From Candidatus Enterousia sp. (lineage in GTDB: Bacteria; Pseudomonadota; Alphaproteobacteria; Rs-D84): a DNA stretch of 63,626 bases. Below are positions 10-34,881 of the stretch, piece after piece. The notes under the pieces were generated by a model. That model saw only the letters and a list, made by a program, of their open reading frames with translations, was not told the DNA's origin and ran no database searches. Positions within the stretch are counted from its first letter, which is position 1. Each line of letters starts with the position of its first letter. Where the stretch lies: NCBI GenBank assembly GCA_045629645.1, contig JAZQRR010000026.1, forward strand, positions 1 through 63,626. Direction: 5' to 3'. The translations under genes were made by a program, and so were the position numbers.

Positions 10-384
10 ATGATTCAAAATGAAACAGTTATGACAGTTGCAGACAACAGTGGTGCACGCAAAGCTATGTGCATCAAGGTTTTGGGCGGTTCTCATCGTC
101 GTTATGCAACAGTTGGCGACAAAATCGTCGTCGCAATTAAAGAAGCCATTCCACGTGGTAAAGTTCAAAAAGGTACAGTACAACGTGCAATCATCGTTCG
201 TACAAAGTTCCCTGTAAAACGTCCAGACGGTTCTATTATCCGTTTTGATCACAATGCGGTTGTTTTAACCAATAAAAACAACTTTGAACCAATTGGAACA
301 CGTATCTTTGGACCAATCGCGCGTGAAGTTCGTCGTAAATACGATGTACAGAAAATCGTGTCTTTGGCACCGGAAGTAATATAA
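10..384 (+). CDS. rplN: 50S ribosomal protein L14
   Basis: Translation [27 protein letters not shown]... matches the L14 signature. First gene of an spc-operon order. Confidence 0.95.
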
Positions 385-405
385 TAACAGATGGAAGGTC
401 ATAAA

Positions 406-708
406 ATGAAAATTAAAAAAGGCGACGAAGTCGTAGTTATTTCGGGAAAATACAAAGGCGTCAAAGGTAAAGTGCTGGAAGCGCGCCCATCCGAATCACG
501 TGTTGTGGTCGAAGGTGTCAATCGTCATAAATGGCATGTAAAACCAACACAAGAACAACCAGGTCATATTATTGATCGCGAAGCGCCTGTTCATGTATCC
601 AATGTTGCATTGGTTGATCCAAAAACAAAGAAAGCAACACGCGTTGGTTACAAAGTAGAAGCAGGTAAAAAAGTTCGCGTTGCAAAAAAATCTGGTGCTG
701 AAATATAA
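406..708 (+). CDS. rplX: 50S ribosomal protein L24
   Basis: [23 protein letters not shown] is a KOW-motif L24. I chose the ATG at 406 because of the GGAAGG RBS upstream. The ORF-track start at 391 is an alternative. Confidence 0.9.
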
Positions 709-763
709 TAACAAGTGAATTGTTGCCCGCTGTTACGGGGACACAACATTAAGGAAAAAAGAA

Positions 764-1309
764 ATGCAAAGCAGATTGCGTGAAATTTATGAAAAAGAAG
801 TTGTACCTGAATTGGTTAAAGAATTTGGGTATACAAATACATTTGCTGTTCCAAAGCTGACAAAAATCGTTCTGAATATGGGCGTCGGTGAAGCTGTTTC
901 TGATAAAAAGAAATTGGATGCAGCTGTTGCTGATTTGACAGCGATTGCGGCACAGAAAGCAATTAAGACGTGTGCAAAAAAATCAATTGCAACATATCGT
1001 CTGCGCGAAGGTCAGGAAATCGGTACAAAAGTTACATTACGTGGTAAAAGAATGTACGATTTCTTGGACAAGTTAATTACAATTGCTTTGCCACGAGTAA
1101 AAGACTTTCGTGGATTGTCAAAATCAAAGTTCGATGGTCGTGGTAACTATGCCTTTGGTATCAAAGAACATTTGATATTCCCAGAAATTTCTGTTGATAA
1201 AATTGACGCTATCCGTGGTATGGATGTCGTTATTGCAACAACAGCAAAAACAGATGATGAAGCACGTGCATTGCTGACCAAAATCGGCTTGCCATTGGTT
1301 TTGAAATAA
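764..1309 (+). CDS. rplE: 50S ribosomal protein L5
   Basis: 181 aa with L5-like sequence ([13 protein letters not shown]..., [15 protein letters not shown]) and the expected operon position. Confidence 0.95.
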
Positions 1310-1327
1310 TAAAAAAGGTAAAAAAAG

Positions 1328-1630
1328 ATGGCGAAATTAGCGTTAATTAATAAACAAAAAAGACGTGAAAAGTTGGTCGCAAAATATGCAAAGAAACGCG
1401 AAGCGTTGAAGGCACAGATGTCAGTTAATGCGACACAAGAAGAAAGAATCGATGCAATGAAAAAGTTGGCAAAATTGCCACGTAATGCAAACCCAACACG
1501 TTTGCGCAATCGTTGCAGTGTCACAGGTCGTTCACGCGGTTTCTCTCGTTTGTTCGGTTTGTGCCGTCAGCAGGTTCGTACAATGGCCAGTGAAGGAAAA
1601 CTGCCAGGTGTACGTAAGTCTAGCTGGTAA
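1328..1630 (+). CDS. rpsN: 30S ribosomal protein S14
   Basis: 100 aa ending [39 protein letters not shown], the long-form S14 C-terminus. Confidence 0.93.
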
Positions 1631-1708
1631 TATTTAACCCAACTGTGGACAATGCAGTTGTAGAAACCCTGTGGGGCGCAAGCCCCGCAATGTTAAGGAG
1701 TAAAAAAG

Positions 1709-2107
1709 ATGTCACTATCACACCCAATCGGCGATATGATTACCCGCATCCGTAATGGTCAAAATGCTGGTAAAGAAACAATCGTCGTACCAAACAGCAA
1801 ATTGCGTGCAGCAGTTTTGTCTGTATTAAAAGAAGAAGGTTTTATTACTGATTTCCGTATCGAAGCAATCGATGAACATCGTTCAAATTTGGTTGTTGAA
1901 TTGAAATATGTAAGCGGAAACGGTGCAATTCAGGAAATTTCAGTTGTTTCTAAGCCAGGTCGCCGTGTTTATTCTGGCAGTGCAAAGATGCCAAAGGTTT
2001 TAAATGGCTTGGGTATTGCAATTGTTTCTACACCAAACGGCGTTATGACTGATCACAAAGCACGCTTGATGAATGTCGGTGGCGAAGTATTGTGCAAGGT
2101 TATATAA
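1709..2107 (+). CDS. rpsH: 30S ribosomal protein S8
   Basis: MSLSHPIGDMITRIRNGQNA... is the S8 N-terminal signature. Confidence 0.95.
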   Translation: MSLSHPIGDMITRIRNGQNAGKETIVVPNSKLRAAVLSVLKEEGFITDFRIEAIDEHRSNLVVELKYVSGNGAIQEISVVSKPGRRVYSGSAKMPKVLNGLGIAIVSTPNGVMTDHKARLMNVGGEVLCKVI

Positions 2108-2125
2108 GAAAGTGAGGATTGAATT

Positions 2126-2677
2126 ATGTCTCGTGCAGGAAAATATCCAGTTAAACTGAGTGATGGCGTTAGTGTGGCGATTGCTGACAACGCATTGGTA
2201 GTCAAAGGCCCAAAAGGTGAATTGAAATTAAGCTTGGATACAAAAAATGCAGGCTTGGTAGATATTGTTATCGAAGAAGGTCAAATCGTTATTAATCCAA
2301 AAGACGCAGAAGAAAAAGCATCTAGAACAATGTGGGGCACAATGGCGCGCAATGTTCGCAATGCAGTAGAAGGTGTTTCAAAAGGTTTTGAAAAACCTAT
2401 GTATATGAAGGGTGTTGGTTATAGAGCGTCTGTTAAAGGAAATCAATTGGTTTTGGTCGCAGGTTATTCTCATGATGTTATCATGGATATCCCAGCGGGC
2501 TTGACAGTTGTTATGGGCGATACACCAACAGAATTTACTGTCCAGGGTATGGATAAATGCTTGGTTGGTCAATTTGCGGATAAAATTCACAAGGTTCGTA
2601 AAGCAGATCCATATAAGGGCAAGGGCATCTTCTATAAGGGCGAAAGAATCCGTCGTAAAGAAGGTAAGAAGAAATAA
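2126..2677 (+). CDS. rplF: 50S ribosomal protein L6
   Basis: MSRAGKYPVKL... and ADPYKGKGIFYKGERIRRKEGKK are L6-like. Confidence 0.95.
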   Translation: MSRAGKYPVKLSDGVSVAIADNALVVKGPKGELKLSLDTKNAGLVDIVIEEGQIVINPKDAEEKASRTMWGTMARNVRNAVEGVSKGFEKPMYMKGVGYRASVKGNQLVLVAGYSHDVIMDIPAGLTVVMGDTPTEFTVQGMDKCLVGQFADKIHKVRKADPYKGKGIFYKGERIRRKEGKKK

Positions 2678-2729
2678 TAATTAACTTTGATTTCCGCTGT
2701 TACGGAAATTGGAAAAAAGGGAAAAGAAA

Positions 2730-3086
2730 ATGTTGAAACATTTATCTAGAGAAGAAAGACGCACATTGGCAAATCGCGGTGCGTTGAAGAGAAAAAATCC
2801 TGGCAAGATTCGTTTGTCAGTATTCCGTTCTGGTCGCCATATTGAAATTCAGGCGATTGATGACACCAAGGGACACACAATTTGTGCTGCGTCTTCAAAA
2901 GAAAAAGCCTTTGCAGGAAAAGGTTGGAATGTTGCTGGTGCAGAACTGGTAGGTAAGGCTTTTGCTGAACGTGTCGTTGCGGCAAAAATTGCTGATAATT
3001 GTTACTTTGATCGTGGTGGTTATCGCTATCATGGTCGTGTAAAGGCGCTGTGCGAAGCAATCCGCGCAGGTGGCGTTAGAATATAA
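2730..3086 (+). CDS. rplR: 50S ribosomal protein L18
   Basis: RLSVFRSGRHIEIQAIDD... and FDRGGYRYHGRVKALCEAIRAGG are L18-like. The ATG at 2730 is preferred over the upstream TTG at 2709. Confidence 0.9.
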   Translation: MLKHLSREERRTLANRGALKRKNPGKIRLSVFRSGRHIEIQAIDDTKGHTICAASSKEKAFAGKGWNVAGAELVGKAFAERVVAAKIADNCYFDRGGYRYHGRVKALCEAIRAGGVRI

Positions 3087-3108
3087 TTGAATAAGACGGA
3101 GTATTATA

Positions 3109-3663
3109 ATGGCACGTTTTGATGATAAAAAATTGCAGACAGATAACTTGGTAGATAAATTGGTATCTATCAACCGTGTATCTAAGACTGTAAAAGGTGG
3201 TCGCAACATGTCTTTCTCGGCATTGGTTGTGGTCGGTGATAAATCTGGTCGTGTTGGATTTGGTAAGGGTAAAGCGTTAGAAGTCCAAGCTGCGGTACAG
3301 AAAGCTACAAAGGCGGCAAAAGCAAAAATGATTCGTGTACCACTGAAAGAAGGTCGTACATTGCATCATGATAGTGCTGCGAAATATGGCGCCAGCAAAT
3401 TGGTTGTACGTTCAGCTGTTCCTGGTACTGGTATCATCGCAGGTGGTGCTTTGCGTGCTGTTTTTGAATGTTTGGGCGTTCAGGACGTTGTTGTAAAATC
3501 ACAAGGTTCTAATAATCCAAACAATATGATTCGTGCTGCGTTCTTGGCGTTCAATAAAATGAATTCTCCAAAAACAGTGGCTGCGCGTCGTGGCAAAACA
3601 GTTGCAGAAATCATCGCTGGCCGTGATGGTAAAAAGTTAGAAGTAGCAACAGAAGATAAATAA
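3109..3663 (+). CDS. rpsE: 30S ribosomal protein S5
   Basis: [27 protein letters not shown] is the S5 signature. Confidence 0.95.
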
Positions 3664-3689
3664 TCTGGGTATAAATAGGAGTTTGAATT

Positions 3690-3866
3690 ATGGCTAAAAT
3701 AGTTGTAAAACAAGTAAAAAGTACTATCGGTCGCCCAGAATCTCAGGTCAAAATCGTAAAAGCGTTGGGCTTGGGGCGTATCGGTAAAACCAAAGAATTG
3801 GAAGATACAGCTTCTGTTCGTGGTATGATTGCAAAAGTTTCTCATTTAGTAGAAATTGCGCAATAA
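3690..3866 (+). CDS. rpmD: 50S ribosomal protein L30 (58 aa, below the ORF-track size cut-off)
   Basis: Hand translation gives MAKIVVKQVKSTIGRPESQVKIVKALGLGRIGKTKELEDTASVRGMIAKVSHLVEIAQ. An AGGAG RBS lies upstream and the position between rpsE and rplO is as expected. Confidence 0.8.
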   Translation: MAKIVVKQVKSTIGRPESQVKIVKALGLGRIGKTKELEDTASVRGMIAKVSHLVEIAQ

Positions 3867-3878
3867 TATATTAGATAG

Positions 3879-3925
3879 TGCAAAGATTGATTACATATAT
3901 TGTGAATCAATCTTTTGCATTTTTT
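3879..3925 (+). terminator. Hairpin plus T-run inside the spc operon, between rpmD and rplO
   Basis: TGCAAAGATTGATT...AATCAATCTTTTGCA followed by TTTTTT. Confidence 0.45.
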
Positions 3926-4008
3926 AAACCGAGTATATAAACAAGCACTTGTTTATATGCGACAAAGAACTATGTAAAAAGTAGTTATAGGACAAAAAGG
4001 AATATAAA

Positions 4009-4467
4009 ATGAAATTAAATGCTTTGATGGATAATTTTGGTGCACGTCAGAACGCAGTACGCGTTGGTCGTGGTATGGGATCTGGTTCTGGTAAAACTGC
4101 CGGTCGTGGTCACAAAGGTCAAAAAGCGCGTAGTGGTTCACGTAAACAGGCAACATTCCAAGGTGGTCAGATGCCTATCTTGCGTCGTTTCCCAAAATTT
4201 GGTTTCAATAATCCATTTGCAAAAGAATATGTAACAATCAACTTGGGTGATATTGAAAAATTCATCGCATCAGGTAAGATTGATGCATCAAAAGAAATCA
4301 ATATTGATTCTTTGCTGGCTGCAAAAATTATCAACCGTAAATTAAGTGGTTTGAAAGTTTTGGCAAAAGGTGAAATCAAATCAGCAGTTAATGTTGTTGC
4401 AGATAAATGGTCTAAATCAGCAGAAGCAGCAATTGTAAAAGCTGGTGGAAGCATTAAAAACAACTAA
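4009..4467 (+). CDS. rplO: 50S ribosomal protein L15
   Basis: RVGRGMGSGSGKTAGRGHKGQKARSG is the L15 signature. Confidence 0.95.
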   Translation: MKLNALMDNFGARQNAVRVGRGMGSGSGKTAGRGHKGQKARSGSRKQATFQGGQMPILRRFPKFGFNNPFAKEYVTINLGDIEKFIASGKIDASKEINIDSLLAAKIINRKLSGLKVLAKGEIKSAVNVVADKWSKSAEAAIVKAGGSIKNN

Positions 4468-4532
4468 TCTTAATAAAATATTCAGGTATCCGATAATCAC
4501 GGGTGCCTGACAACGGTTAAAAGTTCATTCGC

Positions 4533-5849
4533 ATGAAATTCTTAAAAGGCTTTTTCGGTAATCTTAGCGATTTGCAGAAGCGTATTCTGTTTACGTTGGG
4601 GGCGCTGATTGTTTATCGTATTGGGTCCTTTATTCCATTACCAGGGGTAAATGCATCGGCTGTGTTGCATTTGTTCCAAGGCGATAATGGGATGATGGGA
4701 ATGTTTGATATGTTCAGTGGTGGTTCTTTGTCACGTATGTCGGTGCTGGCGCTGAATATTTTCCCGTATATTTCTGCTTCGATTGTGTTGCAGTTGTTAT
4801 CTGCAACCAGCAAGTCTTTAAATGATTTGCGTAAAGAAGGAGAGTCTGGACGTACGAAAATTAACCAATACACACGTTATTTGGCGGTTGTGTTGGCGAT
4901 TGTTCAGGGTTGGGCGGTTATTCGCGGTTTGGAAATGATGGCGCCTGTTGATGGTGTGGCTGCGGTTGTTAACCCTGGGTTTGCGTTTGAATTATCTGCG
5001 ATTATCGCGTTGGTTGGTGGTACTGTTTTTGTCATGTGGTTGGCAGAACAAATTACTGCGCGTGGTATCGGGCAGGGTGCTTCGTTGTTGATTTTTGCTG
5101 GGATTATTGCAGAAGTTCCAGGTGGTATTGCGCAACTGATTTCTTTGGGGTCGGTTGGTCAAATTTCACCAGCGATGATTGCGTTGGTATTGGCGTTTGT
5201 AGTTGGTATCGTCGCATTGATTGCGTTCTTTGAACAGGCGCAACGTCGTATTCAAATTTTATACCCTCGTCAAGTTATGGCGAACGGTGTGATGAATACA
5301 AACGCGTCTTATTTGCCAATCAAGGTAAATATGTCTGGTGTTATGGGACCTGTTTTTGCATCTTCTATTATGATGTTGCCTGCATTTATCCAGCGTTTTG
5401 TTCAGAGTGATAATTTGACTGTTCAGACGATTATGGGATTCTTTACATATGGAACGTGGTCTTATATCATACTGTTTACAGTATTGATTGCGTTCTTTGC
5501 ATATTTTCAGACTGCGGTTATCTTTAATTCAGAAGAAACCAGTAATAATTTGAAAAATGCGGGTGGTTATATCCCAGGGGTTCGTCCAGGTGAACAGACA
5601 ATTAAATATCTGGATAATGTTGTATCACGCACGACAGCGATTGGCGTTGTATATTTGATTGTTGTTTGTGTATTGCCAATTGTTTTGAATACACATGTTG
5701 GTATGCCTTTGACAATTGGTGGTACAAGTGTATTGATTGTGGCAGGTGTGGTTTTGGACACTGTGAATCAGGTTCAGTCATACTTGGTTGCAAAGCAATA
5801 TAGTGGTGTTGTTAAGAAAACACAAAAGAAAGGGCGTTTTCGCGGTTAA
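4533..5849 (+). CDS. secY: Preprotein translocase subunit SecY
   Basis: 438 aa polytopic membrane protein with SecY-like motifs (GSFIPLPGV, LNIFPYISASIVLQLL) and the expected operon position. Confidence 0.95.
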   Translation: MKFLKGFFGNLSDLQKRILFTLGALIVYRIGSFIPLPGVNASAVLHLFQGDNGMMGMFDMFSGGSLSRMSVLALNIFPYISASIVLQLLSATSKSLNDLRKEGESGRTKINQYTRYLAVVLAIVQGWAVIRGLEMMAPVDGVAAVVNPGFAFELSAIIALVGGTVFVMWLAEQITARGIGQGASLLIFAGIIAEVPGGIAQLISLGSVGQISPAMIALVLAFVVGIVALIAFFEQAQRRIQILYPRQVMANGVMNTNASYLPIKVNMSGVMGPVFASSIMMLPAFIQRFVQSDNLTVQTIMGFFTYGTWSYIILFTVLIAFFAYFQTAVIFNSEETSNNLKNAGGYIPGVRPGEQTIKYLDNVVSRTTAIGVVYLIVVCVLPIVLNTHVGMPLTIGGTSVLIVAGVVLDTVNQVQSYLVAKQYSGVVKKTQKKGRFRG

Positions 5850-6008
5850 TAAAAATCGTGAAAATGAAAACAAGATTTGACTTTTGTCGATATTTATATA
5901 AAATTAATCGGCAAAATAAAAATGGCCTGTGGTGAAAATCATAGGTTTTGGTATCGAGATGCTGGGTGGACTTGGCATTTCGCAGTTAAATAAAAAGGAA
6001 AAAGAAAA

Positions 6009-6386
6009 ATGGCACGTATAGCAGGTGTTAACATTCCGACAGAAAAACGCATTGAAGTTGCGTTGCAATATATTCACGGTATTGGTCCAGCCAAGGCTGC
6101 CCAGATTTGTGAAGCGTTGAAATTAAAAGACGGTTTGCGCGCAAAAGATTTGACAGACGCGGATGTTATCAAAATTTCTAAATATATTGAAGAAAACTTT
6201 ACAGTAGAAGGTGATGTTCGTCGTGAAGTTGCAATGAACATCAAACGTTTACAAGATTTAAAAGCATATCGCGGTATCCGTCATCGTAATCGTTTGCCGG
6301 TTCGCGGTCAGCGTACACAAACAAATGCCCGTACACGTAAAGGTAAACGTGTAGTAGTTGCAGGTTCAGCAACCAAGGGTAAGTAA
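6009..6386 (+). CDS. rpsM: 30S ribosomal protein S13
   Basis: [26 protein letters not shown] is the S13 signature. Confidence 0.95.
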
Positions 6387-6488
6387 AAATTAATCTAATG
6401 TCATATCTGTGCGCGTTGGGCCTTGGTCATGTAGCTGTATGTACACCTCCGTCGCCCAACATACACATCTGTAACATTATCTTAATTT
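6387..6488. repeat. 102-bp palindromic intergenic element (RPE-like), copy 1
   Basis: The left arm AAATTAATCTAATGTCATATCTGTGCGCGTTGGGC is complementary to the right arm GCCCAACATACACATCTGTAACATTATCTTAATTT. The centre contains TCATGTAG. Confidence 0.6.
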
Positions 6489-6551
6489 TTTAGAATAAGG
6501 TAGAGATTAACACCATAGTTAATTGAAGACATCGAAAAAGGAAAATAAAAA

Positions 6552-6935
6552 ATGGCAGGTACAAAAGCTAAAAAGAAAGTCGTAAAAAAAGTATCACATG
6601 GCATTGCACATGTTGTTGCGACAAATAACAATACTCGTATTACAATCACAGACCAGTCAGGCGCTGTTTTGGCATGGGCAACCGCTGGGGCAAATAACTT
6701 CAAGGGCGCAAAAAAGTCCACACCATACGCGGCAACAATTGTTGCAGATGCTGTTGGTAAAAAAGTCGCCGAAATGGGTATGAAAACAGTTGATGTTTTG
6801 ATGCGTGGTATTGGTCAGGGTCGTGAATCTGCTGTACGTGGATTGGCAAATGCTGGTCTGATTGTGCAGTCCATCACTGATACAACTCGTATTCCTCATA
6901 ATGGTTGCAGACCAAAAAAGGTACGCAGAGTATAA
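6552..6935 (+). CDS. rpsK: 30S ribosomal protein S11
   Basis: GIAHVVATNNNTRITITDQSGAVLAWATAG... and IPHNGCRPKKVRRV are S11-like. Confidence 0.95.
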   Translation: MAGTKAKKKVVKKVSHGIAHVVATNNNTRITITDQSGAVLAWATAGANNFKGAKKSTPYAATIVADAVGKKVAEMGMKTVDVLMRGIGQGRESAVRGLANAGLIVQSITDTTRIPHNGCRPKKVRRV

Positions 6936-9433: not shown

Positions 9434-9525
9434 TATATCAGTTGCGATAATTAAAACACCCCTGTTGGGGTGTTTTTTTATAGAATTTAAGAACATTTTT
9501 TTGTTAATCTAGAAATTCTTCCCCT

Positions 9526-9727
9526 TGTCATCCTGTGGCTTGACCACAGGACCCAGGTAGTAAAATCCGCATTATAATGTTTGGAAAAGCTTTTTCTGTT
9601 TATGTAATTTGGTGGCTTTTTTATTGTACGAAAGCTTGATGAAGTAGGAATCATAGGTTCCAAGGTAATGCATTCCGTATAAATAAGCATTATGACCTGG
9701 GTTCTGGTGTCAAGCACCAGAATGACA
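9526..9727. mobile_element. MITE-like ~200-bp element with 32-bp hairpin-containing terminal inverted repeats
   Basis: TGTCATCCTGTGGCTTGACCACAGGACCCAGG (9526-9557) against the reverse complement of CCTGGGTTCTGGTGTCAAGCACCAGAATGACA (9696-9727). No coding capacity. Confidence 0.5.
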
Positions 9728-9853
9728 AAGTTTTTTTACAAAAAACTTTGTTTAGCAAAGAAGGAAGTTAATATATAAAATATGAATAAATTATTTAAAC
9801 AATAATATTTGTAGTAATTAAGAACGGTTTTTATTAATTTTAGATATATCTTT

Positions 9854-9892
9854 CCTTGTCATCCTGGGGCCTGTGGTCAAGCCACAGGATGA
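9854..9892. repeat. Compact palindromic relative of the 9526 TIR
   Basis: CCTTGTCATCCTGGGGCCTGTGGTCAAGCCACAGGATGA. The upstream context (AGATATATCTTTCCTTGTCATCCTG) also resembles 9511-9535. Confidence 0.4.
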
Positions 9893-9989
9893 TAAGTGTT
9901 TTGGAGCCCCAAGGGGAAGTAGGGTCCCTGTTCTGGGATTTTTTTTGATTTGTATATATGATAAATATGAGACAAATAGCACTTTTTTG

Positions 9990-12900
9990 TTACTGGGCTC
10001 CCCATCCTTCTTTTATTTTTTGCCATCCTACTGATTCTTCTGTTTCTATTTTAGGAACCATTGGAGTGCTTTGGTTGTTTTTGTTTGTGTCTTTTTTGAC
10101 TATATTTATCAGAGAATTTTGTAGAACAGGATCTAAGTTTTTGTTGTTTTTTATTGATTCTATACGACTTTGTTCCATTTCTTTTTCCATTTCAGCTCGA
10201 TGTTGGTCCATCTGTTGTTGTCTTCTTTCTTCTTGTTGTGTCTGGAATTCTTTTTCTGTGAGCCCTGCTTTTTTTAGAGCTTCTTTACGTTCTTTTTCTC
10301 GCTTTTTTCTAAGTTCCCTGTCTCTTTTTTCCTCTTCTTTTTCTTCTTGAATTCTTTCTTTTTCTAATGCTTTTTCAAGCTTTTTTTGATCTTTGTATTT
10401 TTCATAATCTGTTTTTTCACCTTGATTATTTGTTGTATTAAAGTTTGATTGGTTGTTGTTAATGGTGCCGCTGTTGTCGCCCATTTCTGTAATCTGGTTT
10501 GTAGATACCGCTGCGGACAGGCTTAGATTAAAGCCGTCGTTCTGTATGCTGGTAGAACTGGAATTGTTCTGATAGTTTGATTGCAGGTTGCTGCGACTGA
10601 CCTCGCCAAAGACCGCTTCGCCAGATGCAAAACTGATAATTTGTTCCGATACAACTGGTTCTGCGTATGAATTACAGAATTTTCCTTGGTATGTAGAAGA
10701 ATCGTTGCTGCCACCAAATCCAACACCCGCGCCGACGCTTGCACCGGCGCCCAGTGCACCAATTGAGCCACCTACATTAGCGTTTAAACTAGCATTCCAA
10801 CTGCTGGAATTGGTGTTGTATATTCCTTCGTATCCGGTACATGCGTATAAACGGCGTGTCAGACGGCATACCTGTGGGCCGGGTTCGTACATTGATGTAA
10901 TTTCTTCGGCTGCAATTTGCAGGCCATCAATTTCAATCTTGCGTGTTTCAGTTGCGTTTGTTTGTGCGGCGGCAATTGTATCTTTGTTTGATGTGCCAGA
11001 TAATATTATATATCCATCGCCAGATTCTTTTATACCGTATTTAGATTCTTCTAAATTTGTCATCATATTTTCTTGGTCTGTGTCGCCACTGGTCAAAGAT
11101 AAATCAGCCATTGCGTTACACATCAATATGTTACGCAATTCTTGTGAGTGGGAATTTGCCTGTGATATCTCACGTGCGTATTCGCGTTGATAATTATCCT
11201 TGGCCGTGGTTAATAATGAATCAAACATTGTTTCGGCGTATGAATTTATCAGGTTTGGAAAACGCGCCGCGGTGCGTGTGGATGTCTTACGTGTGGCACC
11301 ACTGATTTGTGACATATCACGACCGGTTAAACACATGTGCACCGTTGGATCACTGGCCAATAATGATATTTTGCGATTGAATTCTGCCCCCAGTTCAGCA
11401 ATTACATTTCCGCTGCCAGAAGTTGTTTCTGCGCCCGTGTAAGCGATATTGTATGGTTTTTTTTCTAACGAGAAGTCTAGCCAATCATTTTTTTTGTTTT
11501 CAGGGTGTTTTAATGTTATTTGACCAAAATTTATTAAACCGCTGATCTTATAATCGTTGTTATCAAGTTGTTCAGTTTGTATACTGCCCGAGCCAATCAG
11601 TGTGTTTGCGTCTGCGAATGAACAATAAGATGTACTGCCGCAGATTTCAATCATTTTTGTGTTTATTGCATTTTCGCATGCCTGTAACATATTGTTGTCA
11701 ATGTTTAAAAAGATCCCCTGGGCAACGTTGGCAATATAATTCCTTTTTTCATCTGCGTTTGTGCCATATTCACTGGAATCACATGCAACCAATTTGTCCA
11801 ATGGGCACATGTCCATAATGGCATTCAAATCCAGACCGATACACTGGGTATAATCTGTGCCACAACGGTCGTTTGATTGCAGGCAATCACGTACAGATGT
11901 TGTACATGCGTCAACACGAATCGCCGCCAAACGCGCCGTTATGTGTTTCCAAATATCTGATTTTAATGCCGCGTTCTTTTTTGTTGTGTCAATACCGCAT
12001 GCATTCAATGGAACCTTGCACACGTTTAACATTGTTTCAGGGCGACTTAGACACATGTCGTATGAGCCATCCGGATCATTTGGATCCATATTGTCTTTAC
12101 ATGCCTTTTGAAAACATTCAGAAACATTGTTTAAACAATTCTGGCGTGTATTATTTTCTGAAATTAATTCGGCAGATTTAATTTGTGGTGCAGATTCTTG
12201 TAAAAAAGTATCCCATACCTGATCCGCGACGGCAACACATTGTTTTGTTACCGTTTCACATAATGGTTTTTTTGCCATTAATGTATCGTATGTTGATGCA
12301 GCGATTTCAATATCGGATACAGCGCCCTTGATTTTTATTTTCTTGTTGGCACCAGCACCCTTTTTAGAATTGGTAGAATCCATTGCGAATATATTTGTAC
12401 ATCCAGAAAAGTCTTCGCCACAGCCACCTGTTGTTTGCATACATTCACGGAACCGAATCGTACACTGGGACAGACCATATTTGTTTGCCGCCTGGTGCGC
12501 TTCCAGTGCCGCTTCGCGTAGGGCGCGTTCAGCCGCAGCCAATTTTTCAGACGATTCGTTACGTTTCTTTTTTATTGTGTTTTCATATGCCATACAATCT
12601 GACTTTACACGTTGAGAATACAGTAACTTGATTGTCTTTAAACTGGCCGAACATTCTGGGATTTGTTCAGAACATACCTGATCCGCCATTTTGTACAGGG
12701 CATCCCCTTCGGTCGGGGTGGCGTCCGATTGGCTTGCAGATTTGAATACATCAATTTCTTCAAAGGCGTTGGTGTCAAATGCGGAAAAGTCCAGTTTGCG
12801 TTCGCCAGATTTATTTGCACTGTCGCGGTTGCGGATGGAATTTGCAACGTTGTTGGCCATGGAAATTACAGCGTCGGCATCAGATCCCATTTCAATTTGT

Positions 12901-13436
12901 TCAATGCCAACAGTTGCCATTTGGTAAGATTGTTCGTCTATTTTTTCAATCTCTGCCAAGGCTTTGTTTAATTCCATGCTTTTATCGCTGCATACGCAAC
13001 GTCCACCGTTGGCGTTATCCATCATACAAAAAGAATCCATACAACCGTTATACTTTGTTGTACATTCTTCATCTGCAATAACGTTTTGTGTTGCGGTTGT
13101 AACCTTGGTTCCAGTACTGATAACCTTTTGCGTTGTTCCAGCGCGTGCAGCGACCGTTTTTGGTGCAGATGTCGCATTTTGTTTTGGTGTCGCACTGCGC
13201 GCCGCAGTCGCACGTGGGGCAGTTGTGTTGCCGGATACAGGTGCGCGTGCCGCACCACGCGATGAGGCCGCACGTGCAGATGTTGCCGCAGGGGCCGATT
13301 GTGTATTCTGGGCAGGTTGGGCGGTGGTGCCAGACACCGGTGCGCGTGCAGAACGACGTGCAGTCGCAGCAATAGATGCGTCGCTGTGTGTCAAACCAAT
13401 AATAACTAGTAATGATAATAATGCACGATTAATCAT
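9990..13436 (-). CDS. Giant Cys-rich secreted protein, family member A (about 1148 aa), with a C-terminal Glu/Lys/Arg-rich coiled-coil tail
   Basis: GGAAGGGA RBS followed by an ATG at 13436. Signal peptide MINRALLSLLVIIGLTHSDASIAA, Ala/Arg/Ser/Thr low-complexity region, then the CMDSFC core motifs. Confidence 0.8.
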   Translation of the reverse strand: MINRALLSLLVIIGLTHSDASIAATARRSARAPVSGTTAQPAQNTQSAPAATSARAASSRGAARAPVSGNTTAPRATAARSATPKQNATSAPKTVAARAGTTQKVISTGTKVTTATQNVIADEECTTKYNGCMDSFCMMDNANGGRCVCSDKSMELNKALAEIEKIDEQSYQMATVGIEQIEMGSDADAVISMANNVANSIRNRDSANKSGERKLDFSAFDTNAFEEIDVFKSASQSDATPTEGDALYKMADQVCSEQIPECSASLKTIKLLYSQRVKSDCMAYENTIKKKRNESSEKLAAAERALREAALEAHQAANKYGLSQCTIRFRECMQTTGGCGEDFSGCTNIFAMDSTNSKKGAGANKKIKIKGAVSDIEIAASTYDTLMAKKPLCETVTKQCVAVADQVWDTFLQESAPQIKSAELISENNTRQNCLNNVSECFQKACKDNMDPNDPDGSYDMCLSRPETMLNVCKVPLNACGIDTTKKNAALKSDIWKHITARLAAIRVDACTTSVRDCLQSNDRCGTDYTQCIGLDLNAIMDMCPLDKLVACDSSEYGTNADEKRNYIANVAQGIFLNIDNNMLQACENAINTKMIEICGSTSYCSFADANTLIGSGSIQTEQLDNNDYKISGLINFGQITLKHPENKKNDWLDFSLEKKPYNIAYTGAETTSGSGNVIAELGAEFNRKISLLASDPTVHMCLTGRDMSQISGATRKTSTRTAARFPNLINSYAETMFDSLLTTAKDNYQREYAREISQANSHSQELRNILMCNAMADLSLTSGDTDQENMMTNLEESKYGIKESGDGYIILSGTSNKDTIAAAQTNATETRKIEIDGLQIAAEEITSMYEPGPQVCRLTRRLYACTGYEGIYNTNSSSWNASLNANVGGSIGALGAGASVGAGVGFGGSNDSSTYQGKFCNSYAEPVVSEQIISFASGEAVFGEVSRSNLQSNYQNNSSSTSIQNDGFNLSLSAAVSTNQITEMGDNSGTINNNQSNFNTTNNQGEKTDYEKYKDQKKLEKALEKERIQEEKEEEKRDRELRKKREKERKEALKKAGLTEKEFQTQQEERRQQQMDQHRAEMEKEMEQSRIESIKNNKNLDPVLQNSLINIVKKDTNKNNQSTPMVPKIETEESVGWQKIKEGWGAQ

Positions 13437-13581
13437 CAAATTCCCTTCCAATTTAATTGATTTTATCATATTAATGGTTTTATTAAAAGTATAATTTTTT
13501 TATTTTTGTTATTTTTTATCTAAATATGGCTTTAAAAAAGTATAGATTTGTGATAAAATTAATCAAATTGGAAAGAGAGTA

Positions 13582-16491
13582 ATGAAAAAAATACTTGCTG
13601 TTTTGGCGATGTTTTCTTGGGTTGCAGGTGCTGCGGATGCGGCGACGGCGCGTCGTTCTGCGCGCACACCGGCGTCTCAGACAGCGCCAACGGCAAATGC
13701 TGCACGCAGTGCAACCAATGCCCGTGCGGCGCGTGCGCCGGCAACTGCGAATGCAGGGGTGGGGGTGCGTGCGACTGCGGCACGCAGTGCGACACCAAAA
13801 CAAAATGCGACATCTGCACCAAAAACGGTTGCTGCACGCGCCGGAACAACGCAAAAGGTTATCAGTACTGGAACCAAGGTTGCAACCGCAACGCAAAATG
13901 TGGTGGTGGGCGAAGAGTGTGCTGCGAAATTTAACGGTTGTATGGATTCTTTTTGTATGCTGGATAATGAAAATGGCGGCAGATGTATTTGCAGTAATAA
14001 ACATACGACTTTTGATTCTATTCTGGAAGAGATAGAGGCACTGGATCAGCGTTCTTATGAAATGGTAACGCTGGGGATAGAACAGGTTGAAATGGGTGCT
14101 AATGCCGATAAGGCTATTGATATGGCGGATGCTGTTACGGCAAAGCTGGATGCCAAGAAAAAACGTGATAGAATTGATTTGTCTATGTGGTCCAGTAAAG
14201 ATGATGAAGTAGATAATATAAGTATGTCTGAATTGGATGGTAAAAAAGGTGATGAATTATATGCCGCAGTTGCAAATATCTGTCGTGCCAGAATACCAGA
14301 ATGTGCGTCCGATTTACAAATGCTGCAAATGATGTATTCCAGACAAATTCAATCGGATTGTGCAGCGTATGAAAACAGTTTGAAACAAAAAAAGACCAAG
14401 GCAATTGAAAATCTGGATACTGCAGAAAGAAGTTTGCGTAAGGCGGCCTTGGAACAATATGAGTCTGCAAATAAATATGATTTGGGGCAATGTACCGTTC
14501 GATTCAAGGAATGTATGCAAACAACAGCAGGGTGCGGTGATGACTTTTCTGGGTGCGCACAGGTTGTTGCAATGGAATCTACAAATGTAAAAACAAAAAA
14601 TGATAAACAGAAAACTTATATTATCCAAGGGGCGTTGTCGGGGGTTCAGATTTCTGCGTCAACATATGATACATTGATGGCAAAAAAGACAATTTGCGAA
14701 AATGTTACAAAACAATGTGTCGATGTCGCAGATCAGGTATTTGATGCGTTTTTGCGCGATGTGGCGCCCCAGGTCAAGGCAGCGGAATTAATCGCAGAAG
14801 ATAAAATGCGTCAAAATTGTGTTGTAAATATTTCTGATTGTTTCCAGCAGGCGTGTAAAGATAATATTGATCCAAATGATCCAGATGGATCGTATGATCT
14901 GTGTTTAACGCGGCCAGAGGCAATGTTGAACCTGTGTAAGGTTCCATTAAACGCCTGTGGTATTAATACAATGCAAGAATCTACGGCACAGCAGTCGTCA
15001 ATATGGAACTATGTTCTGGACAGGTTGGCGTCAATGCGTGTTGATGCGTGCACAACGCAAATCAAAGATTGCTTGCGCGATAATGATAGATGTGGTTCTG
15101 ATTATACACAATGTATGGGGCTGGATATAGATTCTGTGGTTAATATGTGTCCATTAGATAAATTGGTCGCTTGTAATTCCAGTGCCTATGGTGTAGATGT
15201 GGCGCAAAAAGTAAATTATATTTATTCTGTTGCCCAAGGAATTTTGTTGGGAATTGATAATACTTTTTATGCACAATGTGAAGCCGCAGTAAAAAACAAA
15301 ATGGTCGAAATGTGCGGCAGCATTTATAATTGTAATGCAGATCAAAATGAATATCTGGGTAAAAATAGTTTGCGTGTTCAACAACAGACTTCGGGTGATT
15401 GGTTAATTGATGGAACAGTTATGTTTGGCAGTATTAATATGTCGCATCCAACAGATAATGGTGTATTAGATGGTGGTTATACAGTTACTTATAATGTAAA
15501 TAGTGCTGATGGCAAGGGGCAAGATGTTTACGAACGTATTAATCAAACCGTTGTCGCAGATATTCAAAGCGAATTGAACAGAAAAATGTCTATATTGATG
15601 ACAGATCCGACAATTAATATGTGTATAAATGGACGTGATATGGGACAAATTACACGTGGTGCAGGACGTGATACGGCCAGATTCCCGAATCTGTTGGTGC
15701 CGTATGCGAATATTATGTTTGATTCACTGATTGATACGGCGATGATTAATTATAATTTGGAATATGCAAATGCGTTTTCCAAGGCAAATTCATTGTCAGA
15801 GCAATATAAGAACACATTGTTCTGTAACGCAATGGTCAAGAAAAATCAAAGTCCAGTGGAAATGGCACAAAGTCAGACAGGTGTCAAGGAATATACGGAT
15901 TATTCAGTGTTAATTGCGGGAACATTTGATAAAAATATGCTGGATGCAATTAACGAAGGGGCCGAGGCTGAAAATATCGTTTATGTTGATGAAGTTGTTG
16001 CAAATGAAAAACATAAAACAGAAATTGCGCGTGAAAGAATGTCTGCGGTTTATGAACCGGGGCCCAAGGTTTGTCGTATAACCAAGACAATTTATCCATG
16101 TGTTGGATATGATTCTGCGTTTAATTCAGAATCTACATCATGGAATGCAGCGGCGCATGTAACGGTTGCAGGTACGGGTGGTGGATTTGAGGCAGGCGGT
16201 TCGGAATCTTCGACCAAGTACGTTGGTAAATATTGTTCGCAATATGCAGAGCCGTTGATTACGGAACAGATAATTAATTTTGCAGATGAAAATGTTATTG
16301 CGGGTAATATAACACGCAGTAATGTTACGTCAATGGTTGTTAATAATAATCAGGTTACAAATTCTACGTCTACTTCTGTTGGGGTATCGTTAAGTGCGGA
16401 TGTAAGTTCGGATCAAATTACAAATATTGAAAATAATAATGGTACTATTAACAATAATGGTAGAGGAACGGTTAATACAAATAAGAAATAG
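13582..16491 (+). CDS. Giant Cys-rich secreted protein, family member B (969 aa)
   Basis: Signal peptide MKKILAVLAMFSWVAGAADA. Colinear with member A throughout and divergently transcribed from it. Confidence 0.85.
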   Translation: MKKILAVLAMFSWVAGAADAATARRSARTPASQTAPTANAARSATNARAARAPATANAGVGVRATAARSATPKQNATSAPKTVAARAGTTQKVISTGTKVATATQNVVVGEECAAKFNGCMDSFCMLDNENGGRCICSNKHTTFDSILEEIEALDQRSYEMVTLGIEQVEMGANADKAIDMADAVTAKLDAKKKRDRIDLSMWSSKDDEVDNISMSELDGKKGDELYAAVANICRARIPECASDLQMLQMMYSRQIQSDCAAYENSLKQKKTKAIENLDTAERSLRKAALEQYESANKYDLGQCTVRFKECMQTTAGCGDDFSGCAQVVAMESTNVKTKNDKQKTYIIQGALSGVQISASTYDTLMAKKTICENVTKQCVDVADQVFDAFLRDVAPQVKAAELIAEDKMRQNCVVNISDCFQQACKDNIDPNDPDGSYDLCLTRPEAMLNLCKVPLNACGINTMQESTAQQSSIWNYVLDRLASMRVDACTTQIKDCLRDNDRCGSDYTQCMGLDIDSVVNMCPLDKLVACNSSAYGVDVAQKVNYIYSVAQGILLGIDNTFYAQCEAAVKNKMVEMCGSIYNCNADQNEYLGKNSLRVQQQTSGDWLIDGTVMFGSINMSHPTDNGVLDGGYTVTYNVNSADGKGQDVYERINQTVVADIQSELNRKMSILMTDPTINMCINGRDMGQITRGAGRDTARFPNLLVPYANIMFDSLIDTAMINYNLEYANAFSKANSLSEQYKNTLFCNAMVKKNQSPVEMAQSQTGVKEYTDYSVLIAGTFDKNMLDAINEGAEAENIVYVDEVVANEKHKTEIARERMSAVYEPGPKVCRITKTIYPCVGYDSAFNSESTSWNAAAHVTVAGTGGGFEAGGSESSTKYVGKYCSQYAEPLITEQIINFADENVIAGNITRSNVTSMVVNNNQVTNSTSTSVGVSLSADVSSDQITNIENNNGTINNNGRGTVNTNKK

Positions 16492-16493
16492 TA

Positions 16494-16527
16494 AAAATGT
16501 CCGTCATTGACGGATGTTTTTTTATAA
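16494..16527 (+). terminator. Intrinsic terminator after member B
   Basis: TCCGTCATTGACGGA hairpin followed by a T-run. Confidence 0.55.
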
Positions 16528-16533
16528 TTTTAC

Positions 16534-16562
16534 TTGATTTTCTGGTTTGTGTGCGGTATTAT
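16534..16562 (+). promoter_or_regulatory. Candidate sigma70-type promoter for rpsB-tsf
   Basis: TTGATT, 17-nt spacer, TATTAT, about 115 nt upstream of the rpsB ATG. Confidence 0.35.
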
Positions 16563-16676
16563 CTGGGCACGCACTTGGTGCGAAGAACACAACCGTTCTG
16601 CAAAAATTTGTGTCTGGATGTATGTCCGGTCTGGCGCAGACGGTGAGGATAATAACACAAAACAAAGGAAAAAATC

Positions 16677-24985: not shown

Positions 24986-27900
24986 ATGAAATTTATCAAA
25001 GCTTTTGTTTTTGCACTGTTTTTTGCACCTTGTGTGTCGTTCGCGGCATCTAATGATTTTATGGTGGCGGCACAGTTGTTGGCTGCGGCAAAAAATGCAG
25101 ATGTACAGCAGGTACAGTTGTTGGTAAATAATGGGGCTGATGTTAATTATGTTGATGCAACTGGGTTGTCTATTGTATGTACGGCTTTGTTAAATAACGA
25201 TATTCGTGCTGCGCAGATTTTGCAGATGTATGGGGCGGATGCGTCAAAGTGCGATAATCAAATTAAAAAGTACAAGAATAAAAACAAGGTCAGGGATGCG
25301 GGGGGATTATTCAGTGGACTGTCGTCAGTGCAGACGCTATCATTGGCGGCGGCAGGGGCCGCCGTTGTCGTAGGGGGCTTGTTTTTGTTGACAGATGCTT
25401 TTGATCCTGGAAATGATAATGATGCGGGTGGTGCAGGTGGTGGCGGCGGAAACACAGATGAACCGTCTGGACCGGTTACGCCAGGAGCTGCGGGGTTAAA
25501 GGTGGCGTATGGGCCTGCGTATATGAACGCAGATGGCACGATGACCCAAGATGATACGGTGTATCAAAATAATTTGACAACATGGAATCCCAGCTATGGC
25601 GGTTTACGTCAGCTGGATTTTGATTATTTCAGACCAGATGTTCAGGCAGCTAATAATTTTTATGTCGATGGTATCAAGGTGCCTGTACAGAATTATTTGT
25701 TGATGATGCACGGGTATTCTGCGTTTGCAAATGGATATATGGGAAAAACAATCTTTCGTGAAAAAACAAATCATAACCCTGTGCCAGTTGGAAATGCCGC
25801 AGGTGGTGGTGAACCTGTGCGTGTCGGTCTGATTACAGCAAACGGTTTAAACCCAACAGGGTCGGCGGGACGTGCCGAAGGCGTTTTGTTCGCAGCCAGT
25901 GCAGCAACAGATGCAAATACTTTTTTGGTCGATAAATATTTGAATTATGAAAATCCTGTAAATAATGTTTTGGGGGCAGAAAAAAATAATTTTGATTTGT
26001 CTGGCAGTGGTACTGCAATGAATCCGTTCGCAACGGCGTATGACAGTGCGCTGGGCAAGATTGTTGCAGGTTGGGAATCTGGCGGACGTTCTTATGGCGA
26101 CTTTTATGGTTTTGTGCCAAATGGCAGATTGGCAATTCACAGAACAGGAAATGGTAAACAGTGGGCGGATGTTGAAAATCCAACCGAAGGGAATGCTGTT
26201 GGAACTGTAACAGATACAGATGTAAATAATAAAATTAGTGCAGGTGATACAATCGTTTTGGATGAACAATCTTATCTTGTGTCTTTGGCAACGGATTCTG
26301 CGGTTGTAAGACCGGTGATTACGGTTAATGGTACAAATTATGATGTTGCACAGAACAGTAATTTGTTGGTTGCGAAATGCACTGGGGATAATTGCACGGA
26401 TGTGTCTGATATCGCGATATATCAAGGAACGGATGGTTTGTATTATATTAATACATCTGGTGGAAATGGCGCTGATAGTGTCTTGGTGTTGGATGCGGGT
26501 AATTTATATGCGCAAAAAGAATTAGTAGATGCTGATTATAAAAACTTTCAGGCGTTGTATAATTCGCGTAATGATGGCGCAGATGTTATCGCAAACGTTT
26601 CTGTTATTGTGCCTGCGCGTGAAAATGATTACTTGACGATACGCGATATGCCTGCGTTTTTGGCATTAAGCTCATTGGCTGATATCGAAGATTTTAAAAA
26701 TCAGATAGATGCTGTTTATGAAAAAAATTCATTGGATGCGACATCCCAAGGTGCGTATGCAAATCTGTTATTTAATTCTTATGGATCTTCTTCGCCGATA
26801 ATGGTTATGCCAGCAGGTGAATATGTTTTAAAAGTTGGTGATGTTGTTAAGTCGCCGTCTGTTTTGGATGCAACATTTGAAAATTATGCACCGTTGTTGT
26901 ATGGCGCGAATTTAAATCAGCGTTTTATGACAGTCGTTGCTGTTATGCAATCAAATGGTACCGACAGTGCTGATTCTATTGCAGATTATGGTAATGGCGG
27001 TGGCGAATTTGGCAAGCTGTATTTATCAATGTGGTCTGATGCAGAAACAGATACAATGTATTCTTCACGTAAATGTGGTGTTGCAGGCAGTGGGGCAGGT
27101 GGTGTTGACCCATGGTGTTTCGCAGCTGCGGGTGCAACCGCAGAAATGGCAACTGCAGCGGCAGCAGGTGCGGTGGCTTCGGTTCAGGCGGCATTTGATT
27201 ATATGTCAAACGAACAGGTTTATCAATTGTTGGCATTGACTGCGGATGGTTATTTGTTGGGGACAGATGCGTCGGGGGCCGCATTCCAACCAGATACGCT
27301 GGCGGCATATTTGCAGGCAAAATATTCTTTGCCACCAGAATATTATCAAACTTCATTAAGTGCAGATGAATATTTGAAAGCTTTTGCAGATGTGTATGGA
27401 TATGGCTTGATTAACCTGGAACGTGCAATGACGCCGGGAAAGTCTGTTTATTATTATAATGGTAATCGTATTGTTTCTGCAGATGGTAATGCGTATTGGC
27501 GTTCTGCAACTAATACGACATTCAGACCGTCTGCTGTGTTGAATTTGCGTGGCGCGTCTGTCAGTGCACCGTTTTATGATGTGGTACAAAGTGTTGATGG
27601 CAAGATGACTTTGCCACGTGTTTGGAAAAACGAATTTGCGATTGGACCAACGGATAAAAGCGGTTTGTATATGGGGGATGTATTGGGCGAATTGAAAACA
27701 CGTCGTGAAAATGATGTGCAAACTATGGTTGGTAATATCGGATTGTCAATGGCAATGTCAGAACGCGCGTATGATGATAATATGAACGGGCTGGATAATT
27801 TAAGTTTAGGTTATGCGTATGGAAATTGGGGATTTGGTGCGGATTATCAACGTTATTTTACAGATGGAGAATCGCGTTTTGATGGATTGGCAAATCCGAT

Positions 27901-28669
27901 ATTAGGATTGGCGTCAAATGTTATTTCTTCGGATGTGAAATATATGTATGGAAACTGGATGTTTGGTGGTCGTGTTTTTTCTGGGGCGATTACAGATGAA
28001 GGTTTGCTGGAAAATGACCCTGCGATTTCTGCGCAATATATGCCTGCTAAGTTGGGATTAATTCAAGGAGGCAGTGCGGATATTGCATGGAAAAACGGCG
28101 CGTTAAATATTGGAACGTCCATAGGTTTTGTTCGTGAATCAGATACTTTGTTGGGGGCGCAGACGGGTGGTCTGTTGAATTTGGGGGCCGGTGATACAAC
28201 ATTTATTGACGCGGTTGTTAAATACAATTTATTTGAATCTGTAAATTTTGTGGCGCGCGCAACATTTGCCAGAACGGTTTCAGATGCATCGGGGGATGTT
28301 ATTTTGGGACTGGGGGATATTTATTCTGATTCTTTTGCGATTGGTGCAAATGTTGGGAATTTTGAGTTTGCAGTTTCTCAACCGCTGGCAATCGTTAATG
28401 GCGATTTGCAGTATGCGTATGCAGATTATCGTGTGACAGGTGATGAAATGTCAGGTTATGTATTGGATATTGCAGATGCTTATGTTGCGGATTTGTCGCT
28501 GAAACCAGATTCCAGAGAATTACGTTTTTCGGGGACATATCGTCATAAATTTGGTGAGTTTACAGATGGTGCGTTTGGATTTATTTATCGCGTGAACCCA
28601 AATCATACAGATGATTTTGGTAATGAATCTGTATTTATGATGAAATTAACCCATCGTTTAGGTATATAA
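24986..28669 (+). CDS. Large exported protein (1227 aa) with N-terminal ankyrin repeats, a possibly degenerate subtilase(S8)-like region and a C-terminal beta-barrel (autotransporter-like) region
   Basis: Signal peptide present. LLAAAKNADVQQVQLLVNNGADVNYVDATGLSIVCTALLNNDIRAAQILQMYGADAS fits the ANK consensus. YGYGLINLERAM resembles the end of an S8 domain. The C-terminus has alternating-residue beta-strand patterns. Confidence 0.6.
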   Translation: MKFIKAFVFALFFAPCVSFAASNDFMVAAQLLAAAKNADVQQVQLLVNNGADVNYVDATGLSIVCTALLNNDIRAAQILQMYGADASKCDNQIKKYKNKNKVRDAGGLFSGLSSVQTLSLAAAGAAVVVGGLFLLTDAFDPGNDNDAGGAGGGGGNTDEPSGPVTPGAAGLKVAYGPAYMNADGTMTQDDTVYQNNLTTWNPSYGGLRQLDFDYFRPDVQAANNFYVDGIKVPVQNYLLMMHGYSAFANGYMGKTIFREKTNHNPVPVGNAAGGGEPVRVGLITANGLNPTGSAGRAEGVLFAASAATDANTFLVDKYLNYENPVNNVLGAEKNNFDLSGSGTAMNPFATAYDSALGKIVAGWESGGRSYGDFYGFVPNGRLAIHRTGNGKQWADVENPTEGNAVGTVTDTDVNNKISAGDTIVLDEQSYLVSLATDSAVVRPVITVNGTNYDVAQNSNLLVAKCTGDNCTDVSDIAIYQGTDGLYYINTSGGNGADSVLVLDAGNLYAQKELVDADYKNFQALYNSRNDGADVIANVSVIVPARENDYLTIRDMPAFLALSSLADIEDFKNQIDAVYEKNSLDATSQGAYANLLFNSYGSSSPIMVMPAGEYVLKVGDVVKSPSVLDATFENYAPLLYGANLNQRFMTVVAVMQSNGTDSADSIADYGNGGGEFGKLYLSMWSDAETDTMYSSRKCGVAGSGAGGVDPWCFAAAGATAEMATAAAAGAVASVQAAFDYMSNEQVYQLLALTADGYLLGTDASGAAFQPDTLAAYLQAKYSLPPEYYQTSLSADEYLKAFADVYGYGLINLERAMTPGKSVYYYNGNRIVSADGNAYWRSATNTTFRPSAVLNLRGASVSAPFYDVVQSVDGKMTLPRVWKNEFAIGPTDKSGLYMGDVLGELKTRRENDVQTMVGNIGLSMAMSERAYDDNMNGLDNLSLGYAYGNWGFGADYQRYFTDGESRFDGLANPILGLASNVISSDVKYMYGNWMFGGRVFSGAITDEGLLENDPAISAQYMPAKLGLIQGGSADIAWKNGALNIGTSIGFVRESDTLLGAQTGGLLNLGAGDTTFIDAVVKYNLFESVNFVARATFARTVSDASGDVILGLGDIYSDSFAIGANVGNFEFAVSQPLAIVNGDLQYAYADYRVTGDEMSGYVLDIADAYVADLSLKPDSRELRFSGTYRHKFGEFTDGAFGFIYRVNPNHTDDFGNESVFMMKLTHRLGI

Positions 28670-32199: not shown

Positions 32200-32268
32200 T
32201 CCGAATATATAAATATATTCTATCAAAATAAGAAGGTTCAGACAAGGGAAATGAATAGTTTTTTGTAA

Positions 32269-34854: not shown

Positions 34855-34881
34855 TCTTTGTTAATACGGAGAGGGAACCTG

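Follow-up and report, generated by a model that had tools for sequence, protein, structure and literature searches.

A probable gene-conversion tract in the linker-coding segments of two head-to-head paralogs from Candidatus Enterousia sp.

Introduction

Recombination between inverted gene copies such as tuf can yield inversions as well as short non-reciprocal exchanges. In Salmonella and Escherichia coli the inverted tufA and tufB genes undergo concerted evolution, and the ends of the exchanged tracts are limited by homology and by mismatch repair (PMC5485169). Here we examine 63,626 nucleotides (nt) of DNA from Candidatus Enterousia sp. (GCA_045629645.1, contig JAZQRR010000026.1, positions 1-63,626 of the forward strand), a stretch to which we refer as the window and in whose numbering coordinates are given, and in particular two adjacent, divergently oriented paralogs within it, genes A and B, which very probably carry a recent gene-conversion tract in the segments that encode their N-terminal linkers. 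The resemblance to tufA and tufB lies in the presence of two inverted paralogs on one chromosome, and in short, non-reciprocal tracts that would be produced by homologous recombination. The tuf genes, however, are near-identical over their full length and lie far apart, whereas A and B are 59% identical, are separated by 145 base pairs (bp), would have undergone conversion mainly in a linker segment of ~130 nt and encode proteins of unknown function.

A segment-limited form of concerted evolution has been described for the outer-membrane-protein paralogs of Helicobacter pylori (babA/babB, homA/homB and sabA/sabB/hopQ), chimeras of which arise by intragenomic recombination that is probably RecA-dependent (PMC3960876). 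There, as at the locus described here, one segment is alike within a strain and different between strains, and the other segments follow orthology. The bab and hom genes are, however, homogenised at their 3' ends and at dispersed loci, whereas A and B lie side by side and are alike in the 5' linker; the protein families are furthermore unrelated, and A and B are only presumed to be exposed at the cell surface. In geometry alone, the locus also resembles the S-layer (sap) cassettes of Campylobacter fetus, in which a single promoter reportedly serves several otherwise silent cassettes, and for which inversion is said to have been demonstrated by Dworkin and Blaser in the 1990s. Both arrangements have opposed homologous genes with a conserved 5' coding region and a promoter-bearing segment between them, such that recombination in the 5' region could bring a promoter and a gene body into a new combination. 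Unlike the sap genes with their one promoter, however, A and B each possess a promoter-like leader of their own, as read from the sequence. Last, arm-to-arm conversion keeps the inverted duplicates of human sex-chromosome palindromes similar, with rare inversions (PMC3723533); these are eukaryotic structures of many kilobases with arms that are >99.9% identical throughout, as opposed to the bacterial tract of ~130 nt, inside otherwise old and diverged arms, considered in this work.

Results

Gene A (9990-13436, minus strand, 1148 amino acids (aa) counted from MINRALL) and gene B (13582-16491, plus strand, 969 aa), as given in the open reading frame (ORF) list, have 59% DNA identity over 951 aligned codons and 50% protein identity. 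A preliminary description of the locus had reported, within genes otherwise much more diverged, a patch in which the reverse complement of 13081-13198 and the sequence at 13784-13901 differ at 5 of 118 nt and encode the same peptide. These statements are exact, and the peptide encoded by both copies is RATAARSATPKQNATSAPKTVAARAGTTQKVISTGTKV. Without gaps or a change of register, the island continues as far as 13214 in A and 13768 in B, giving arms of 134 nt at 13081-13214 (minus strand, codons ~75-119 of A) and 13768-13901 (plus strand, codons ~63-107 of B) that differ at 6 positions (95.5% identity) and contain perfect runs of 47 and 39 nt. Read in the sense of the genes, identity drops abruptly to 24% at the upstream edge, at an indel boundary, and is 72% across the 100 nt beyond the downstream edge (12981-13080 in A, minus strand, with a GCMDSFCM motif; 13902-14001 in B, plus strand), where the cysteine-rich domain starts. 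This lower-identity continuation, with which a repeat search returns an inverted repeat of 234 nt at 85%, is ordinary paralog conservation. Along the two genes as a whole, a codon sliding window shows a local island and not a uniform profile, as had been anticipated, with DNA identity of 0.93-0.97 at codons 74-113 of A and ~0.4-0.8 elsewhere. The best 118-nt window has 114 matches. When codon columns are shuffled, this figure averages 85.5 and does not exceed 98; as none of 20,000 shuffles reached 114, chance is excluded as the source of the island.

Two explanations had been offered at the outset, namely recent gene conversion within an old inverted duplication, and strong selection on the peptide or on the nucleic-acid segment. 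The first is supported by the synonymous codons, by the grouping of the patch according to genome and by lineage-specific limits of the tracts. Where A and B have the same amino acid, the same codon is used in 37 of 42 cases within the patch and in 207 of 433 elsewhere (Fisher p = 2e-7). The same head-to-head pair is carried by a sister species (L004, JAZQGC010000023; L numbers denote the related loci and contigs compared) at ~87% DNA identity to the window. Within the patch, the two window copies differ at 5 sites and the two L004 copies at 7, whereas orthologues differ at 14-16; expressed as identity, the paralogs are 96% (window) and 94% (L004) alike, as opposed to 86% for the two A genes and 88% for the two B genes. 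The gene bodies reverse this order (orthologues 84-86%, paralogs 60%). In trees, the patch groups by genome with 99.8% bootstrap, whereas the bodies resolve into A and B clades of 100% bootstrap each, which places the duplication before the separation of these species. Furthermore, species-specific states are common to both paralogs, with NATSAPK in both window copies and PVATA(P/S)K in both L004 copies. A patch that groups by genome, joined to bodies that group by orthology, is the decisive result and argues for concerted evolution by gene conversion and not for constraint alone.

Between the sister species, no part of the locus is more diverged than the linker upstream of the patch, at 65-76% identity (65-71% in A, and 74-76% in B upstream of the patch) versus 80-97% (mostly 82-90%) elsewhere, and such fast divergence between genomes, together with homogenisation within them, is the signature of concerted evolution. 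The downstream edge falls at the same place in the window and in L004, just before the first cysteine, where the grouping turns to orthology.

If constraint were the only cause, the patch would have remained identical since the duplication through strong purifying selection on the peptide or on an RNA or DNA element, with no transfer between the genes. Selection on the peptide is indeed apparent in the 3' half of the patch, which encodes ARAGTTQKVIxxGTKV, part of a motif (TVxARAGTTQKVIxxGTKV) that is conserved family-wide at the 3' end of the linker, and even unrelated genomes can be 80-88% identical in DNA over the motif region. Selection alone, however, cannot explain the DNA identity: among family members from different contigs at comparable body divergence, the motif region averages 61% (95th percentile 73%; values of 80-88% are rare), whereas in the patch the synonymous sites are identical too, and orthologues in different genomes differ more than paralogs in the same genome. 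Moreover, the 5' half (SATPKQNATSAPK) lies in the hypervariable linker and differs between the sister species, yet is common to both copies in each genome. With regard to a nucleic-acid element, a search of Rfam at permissive E-values gave two sub-threshold chance matches, both outside the patch, and no Rfam family within it, and, as RNA, the patch folds with no greater stability than shuffled sequences do (z-score +0.67). Of the second explanation, then, selection on the peptide stands for the 3' half, constraint on the nucleic-acid segment is unsupported, and constraint as the sole origin of the island is very improbable.

Islands of this kind recur across the gene family. Our survey covered the adjacent paralog pairs of 160 related loci and scored as an island an N-terminal identity of at least 87% in a 30-codon window, against 55-60% overall. 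In addition to the window, head-to-head pairs with an island are found in L001, L004 and L163/L169/L170, and tandem pairs with an island in L028, L041, L049, L051, L043, L050, L071 and L081; tandem pairs without one are those of L034, L059, L062, L074, L117, L139, L148 and L151. The extent of the tract varies between lineages. In the sister species (L004/L002) it reaches further 5', so that B carries an A-type APVSGNTTAPR segment; the L001 island (92%) is nearer the signal peptide; in L163/L169/L170, which represent one species, a 93% island occupies another part of the linker; and the tandem islands of L050, L071 and L081 stand at 97%, 96% and 96-99%, respectively. Independent tracts with lineage-specific limits are what interlocus conversion would be expected to leave. 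Some tandem pairs (L043 5971-11642, L050 5986-11751, L081 3092-8874) also contain blocks of ~0.5-1.7 kb at 100% identity within genes that are otherwise 55-65% identical, and the short-read cases among these could in part be assembly artefacts. L081 derives from a long-read circular chromosome (OZ007020.1), so that at least its island is no short-read artefact. A separate observation concerns L164, where both genes of a head-to-head pair (80-6720) fall within the A clade as each other's closest relatives (97% bootstrap), while the same metagenome-assembled genome has a B-type gene on another contig (L006); this pair could reflect whole-gene conversion or an extra duplication. An exact-pattern scan of Joint Genome Institute (JGI) metagenomes for closer strains found nothing, and a profile-based scan of the same resource returned only relatives of at most 57% identity, which were used for the family-wide survey.

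A repeat within a metagenome-derived contig invites the question of whether the assembler collapsed or cross-joined two diverged linkers into a false identical stretch, all the more because the assemblies of relatives break exactly here (the contig ends of L002 and L003). However, the arms differ at 6 positions, and each runs without a break into the gene to which it belongs. Logan unitigs from three public runs contain a 613-nt unitig (13185-13797) that ends just inside both arms, and the shared arm has ~2x the depth of this middle piece, which confirms two copies; in all, this unitig structure is seen in four independent public runs from at least 3 studies. In addition, L003 independently reproduces the A arm, an island of its own is present in the sister species (L004/L002), and the long-read circular genome shows the same phenomenon in the tandem pair L081. 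We regard the chance that the island is an assembly error as minute. L003, a close strain aligned to window 11500-14105, has features of its own: it is 97-100% identical to the window at 12670-13670 and from 13837 onwards, only 80-94% identical further into A, and at 13670-13836 has an A-like tract resembling that of L004 A in place of the B linker. This mosaic is attributable either to strain-level recombination or to chimeric assembly.

As had been described, A and B diverge from a 145-bp intergenic region (13437-13581) common to both, which is 17% GC and has promoter-like hexamers on both strands, and the mirroring of their leaders is real. The A leader (13446-13468, minus strand, TGATAAAATCAATTAAATTGGAA) consists of an extended -10-like TGnTAAAAT followed by a GGAAGGG that resembles a ribosome-binding site (RBS), and its mirror copy precedes B (13551-13573, plus strand, TGATAAAATTAATCAAATTGGAA); the two match at 22 of 23 bases in direct comparison and were given as 91% complementary by the repeat search. 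Only these two copies occur in the window, where none is expected by chance. The same element precedes the A and B orthologues in L001-L005, L165 and L167, and the extended -10-like box and RBS-like leader of both genes are conserved as TGATAAAATnAATTAAATTGGAA(A)GG. An in-frame upstream ATG (13467-13469, minus strand) would extend A by MIKSIKLEGNL, but as it overlaps the -10-like box, and as the next ATG is preceded by the RBS-like GGAAGGG, 13436 is the likelier start.

The island arms (13081-13214 and 13768-13901) and the leaders flank the control region in the manner of the inverted repeats of a promoter switch, and one may ask whether the patches serve as recombination sites, a flip of 13215-13767 swapping promoters, signal peptides and upstream linkers between the two bodies. 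The geometry would allow it, as in-frame inverted repeats with perfect runs of 47 and 39 nt surround a promoter-containing segment, and the short-read graph does not fix the orientation of the 613-nt middle piece. However, the near-identical leaders mean that a flip would exchange nearly equivalent modules, and the single alternating promoter of the sap or fimS type is not what is found, each gene having its own promoter-like leader as far as can be read from the bases. Promoter, signal-peptide and body types are linked in the same way in the window, L004, L002, L003, L001, L005, L165 and L167 (eight contigs, five species), and tandem pairs, which cannot invert, carry the same N-terminal islands. 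A switch of the fimS or hin type would have its recombinase encoded nearby, whereas a scan of window ORFs of at least 150 aa, covering most but not all of the longer ones, revealed no recombinase or invertase domain. No Nanopore or PacBio run is listed for this sequence, and none of the window sequence was found in the RNA runs listed. Taken together, we consider it very unlikely that the patches act as the inversion sites of a switch for phase or antigenic variation, with the high identity kept because the switch needs it; the evidence against frequent promoter flipping in this species is indirect.

The locus has nonetheless been rearranged. One related species, represented by three independent assemblies (L163 35-6234, L169 3612-9934, L170 3915-10255), has its coding regions swapped with respect to both flanks and promoter core, the B-type coding region adjoining rplQ and the A-type adjoining rpsB. 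Such an arrangement requires that recombination once took place between a promoter and its coding region and, to that extent, favours a flip. The orientation of the control-region core relative to rplQ and rpsB is conserved across species, and in these three loci too the core keeps it, aligning better unflipped against all six comparators. Swapped coding regions around an unflipped core call for two inversions or, equivalently, a double crossover. One exchange junction lies in the mirrored leader, between the -10 box and the start codon and thus outside the linker patch, which counts against the patch as the site of flipping. At the outer flanks, conservation is limited to the terminator region of rplQ and the leader of rpsB, and a search for repeats that might mediate rearrangement of the whole pair found no flanking inverted repeats.

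The two proteins share one architecture: a hydrophobic, signal-like N-terminal segment, a linker rich in Ala, Arg, Thr and Ser, a 34-cysteine domain and, in A, a long Lys/Glu-rich tail that B is without. The N-terminal segments, which end in A-x-A, read as signal peptides. The linkers are of low complexity and ~90 residues long, with coding DNA of 56-63% GC (13083-13361, minus strand, in A, predicted to be disordered by homology to B; 13648-13899, plus strand, in B). Direct repeats occur inside both (13225-13272/13324-13371 in A, 48 nt, 73%; 13693-13715/13771-13793 in B, 23 nt, 83%), which implies that the linkers also evolve by gain and loss of repeats. AlphaFold2 models B, at moderate confidence (predicted local distance difference test score 63, predicted template modelling score 0.33), with a disordered stretch at residues 9-108, a largely helical, cysteine-rich core and a beta-rich part at residues 768-912. 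Neither protein has a Pfam or NCBIfam match, a profile search of the PDB gave no match for the family, and Foldseek against the PDB with the model of B gave nothing usable (best E-value 0.06); low-complexity matches overwhelmed a protein search for which the query was limited to the N-terminal 345 aa of A, and only fragments came back. Homologues number >1,100, all unnamed or annotated as hypothetical protein, and come from uncultured Alphaproteobacteria or Candidatus Enterousia. The order Rs-D84 lineage is characterised by reduced genomes of <1 Mb and an animal-gut origin (PMC12306168).

Three more distant family members lie in the window (29419-32226, minus strand; 32695-34854, plus strand; 34858-37464, plus strand), with 23-36% identity to B and, in each, a signal-like start, a linker rich in Ala, Arg and Ser/Thr and 34-37 cysteines. 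The first two of these are also head to head. No DNA identity island was found among the three, or between them and A or B. The window furthermore encodes a 1057-aa autotransporter with Chlamydia-type polymorphic-membrane-protein repeats (53514-56687, plus strand) and a 1227-aa protein with ankyrin repeats (24986-28669, plus strand), which suggests interaction with a host or partner cell.

The A/B pair is flanked by rpoA-rplQ and rpsB-tsf, with rplQ and rpsB as the immediate neighbours. Between rplQ and the 3' end of A, a spacer of 556 bp, which is far shorter in related species, contains three copies (9524-9557, 9690-9728 and 9863-9896) of a palindromic element of ~35 nt (CTTGTCATCCTGTGGCTTGACCACAGGA...) that resembles a repetitive extragenic palindrome or a miniature inverted-repeat transposable element. 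On the other side, ~150 nt upstream of rpsB (16525-16676) are 75-86% conserved in L001, L165 and L170 whichever paralog adjoins, and are probably an rpsB leader or regulatory region.

Discussion

In our estimation, the island is very probably a recent interlocus gene-conversion tract between inverted paralogs of ancient duplication, and an instance of a recurrent concerted evolution of linkers. The comparisons show that the segments coding for the linkers of adjacent paralogs have become alike through repeated non-reciprocal exchange. Several points weigh against this interpretation. The conversion is read from sequence comparison, and either paralog of the window may have been the donor. The 3' half of the patch is constrained at the peptide level, and a few unrelated pairs reach the upper range of DNA identity there, so that the 5' half and the phylogenetic pattern alone can decide the matter. 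Head-to-head pairs are also found with no island (L005, L164-L168 and L136). The comparison sequences are all metagenome assemblies, in which repeats can be mis-joined, and L003 in particular is of low coverage and mosaic relative to the window, for which reason we have counted it as weak support only. Last, no recA was present among the window ORFs scanned.

As to how gene conversion would have proceeded, it is reasonable to postulate that homologous recombination copied ~134 nt non-reciprocally from one paralog into the other, within the sequence that encodes the disordered N-terminal linker and just upstream of the cysteine-rich domain. The recombination may be of the RecA type, for which the perfect runs of 47 and 39 nt would be long enough as substrates; homologous recombination usually has a minimal pairing length below this range. 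In the tuf model system, likewise, the minimal length is one that runs of 39-47 nt exceed (PMC5485169). The family-wide motif at the 3' end of the linker could act as a permanent homology anchor. The fixed position of the downstream edge may have either of two causes: heteroduplex may fail to enter DNA of 60-70% identity, or selection may remove conversions that would erase the difference between A and B in the folded domain. The disordered linker, for its part, presumably tolerates replacement, and conversions would survive and accumulate there.

A more speculative proposal, which we hold to be possible but doubtful, is that the linker is a dedicated module that is homogenised within a genome and diversified between genomes, repeated segmental conversion among paralogs (of which the window has five) being itself selected. 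Were this the case, it may be that paralogs expressed together depend on one and the same species-specific linker to engage a shared partner in anchoring, export or co-assembly; alternatively, mosaic linkers may provide strain-level surface variation in a host-dependent bacterium of reduced genome. Occasional crossovers would then re-pair promoters and coding regions, as in the species of L170.

Gene conversion between paralogs is textbook knowledge, and the present case leaves the understanding of recombination unchanged. New is the setting: the mechanism occurs, and recurs, in a family of uncharacterised proteins from an uncultured lineage. The finding matters for assembly, as metagenome contigs break or may be mis-joined at this locus, and for orthology calls in the family. 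Its value is descriptive, in that it flags a large unannotated family (>1,000 members) of long, cysteine-rich and probably secreted proteins, and shows that recombination between paralogs is active in the genomes of Candidatus Enterousia and related gut Alphaproteobacteria, where on at least one occasion it swapped entire coding regions between the two promoters. The members of this family are candidate proteins for interaction at the cell surface.

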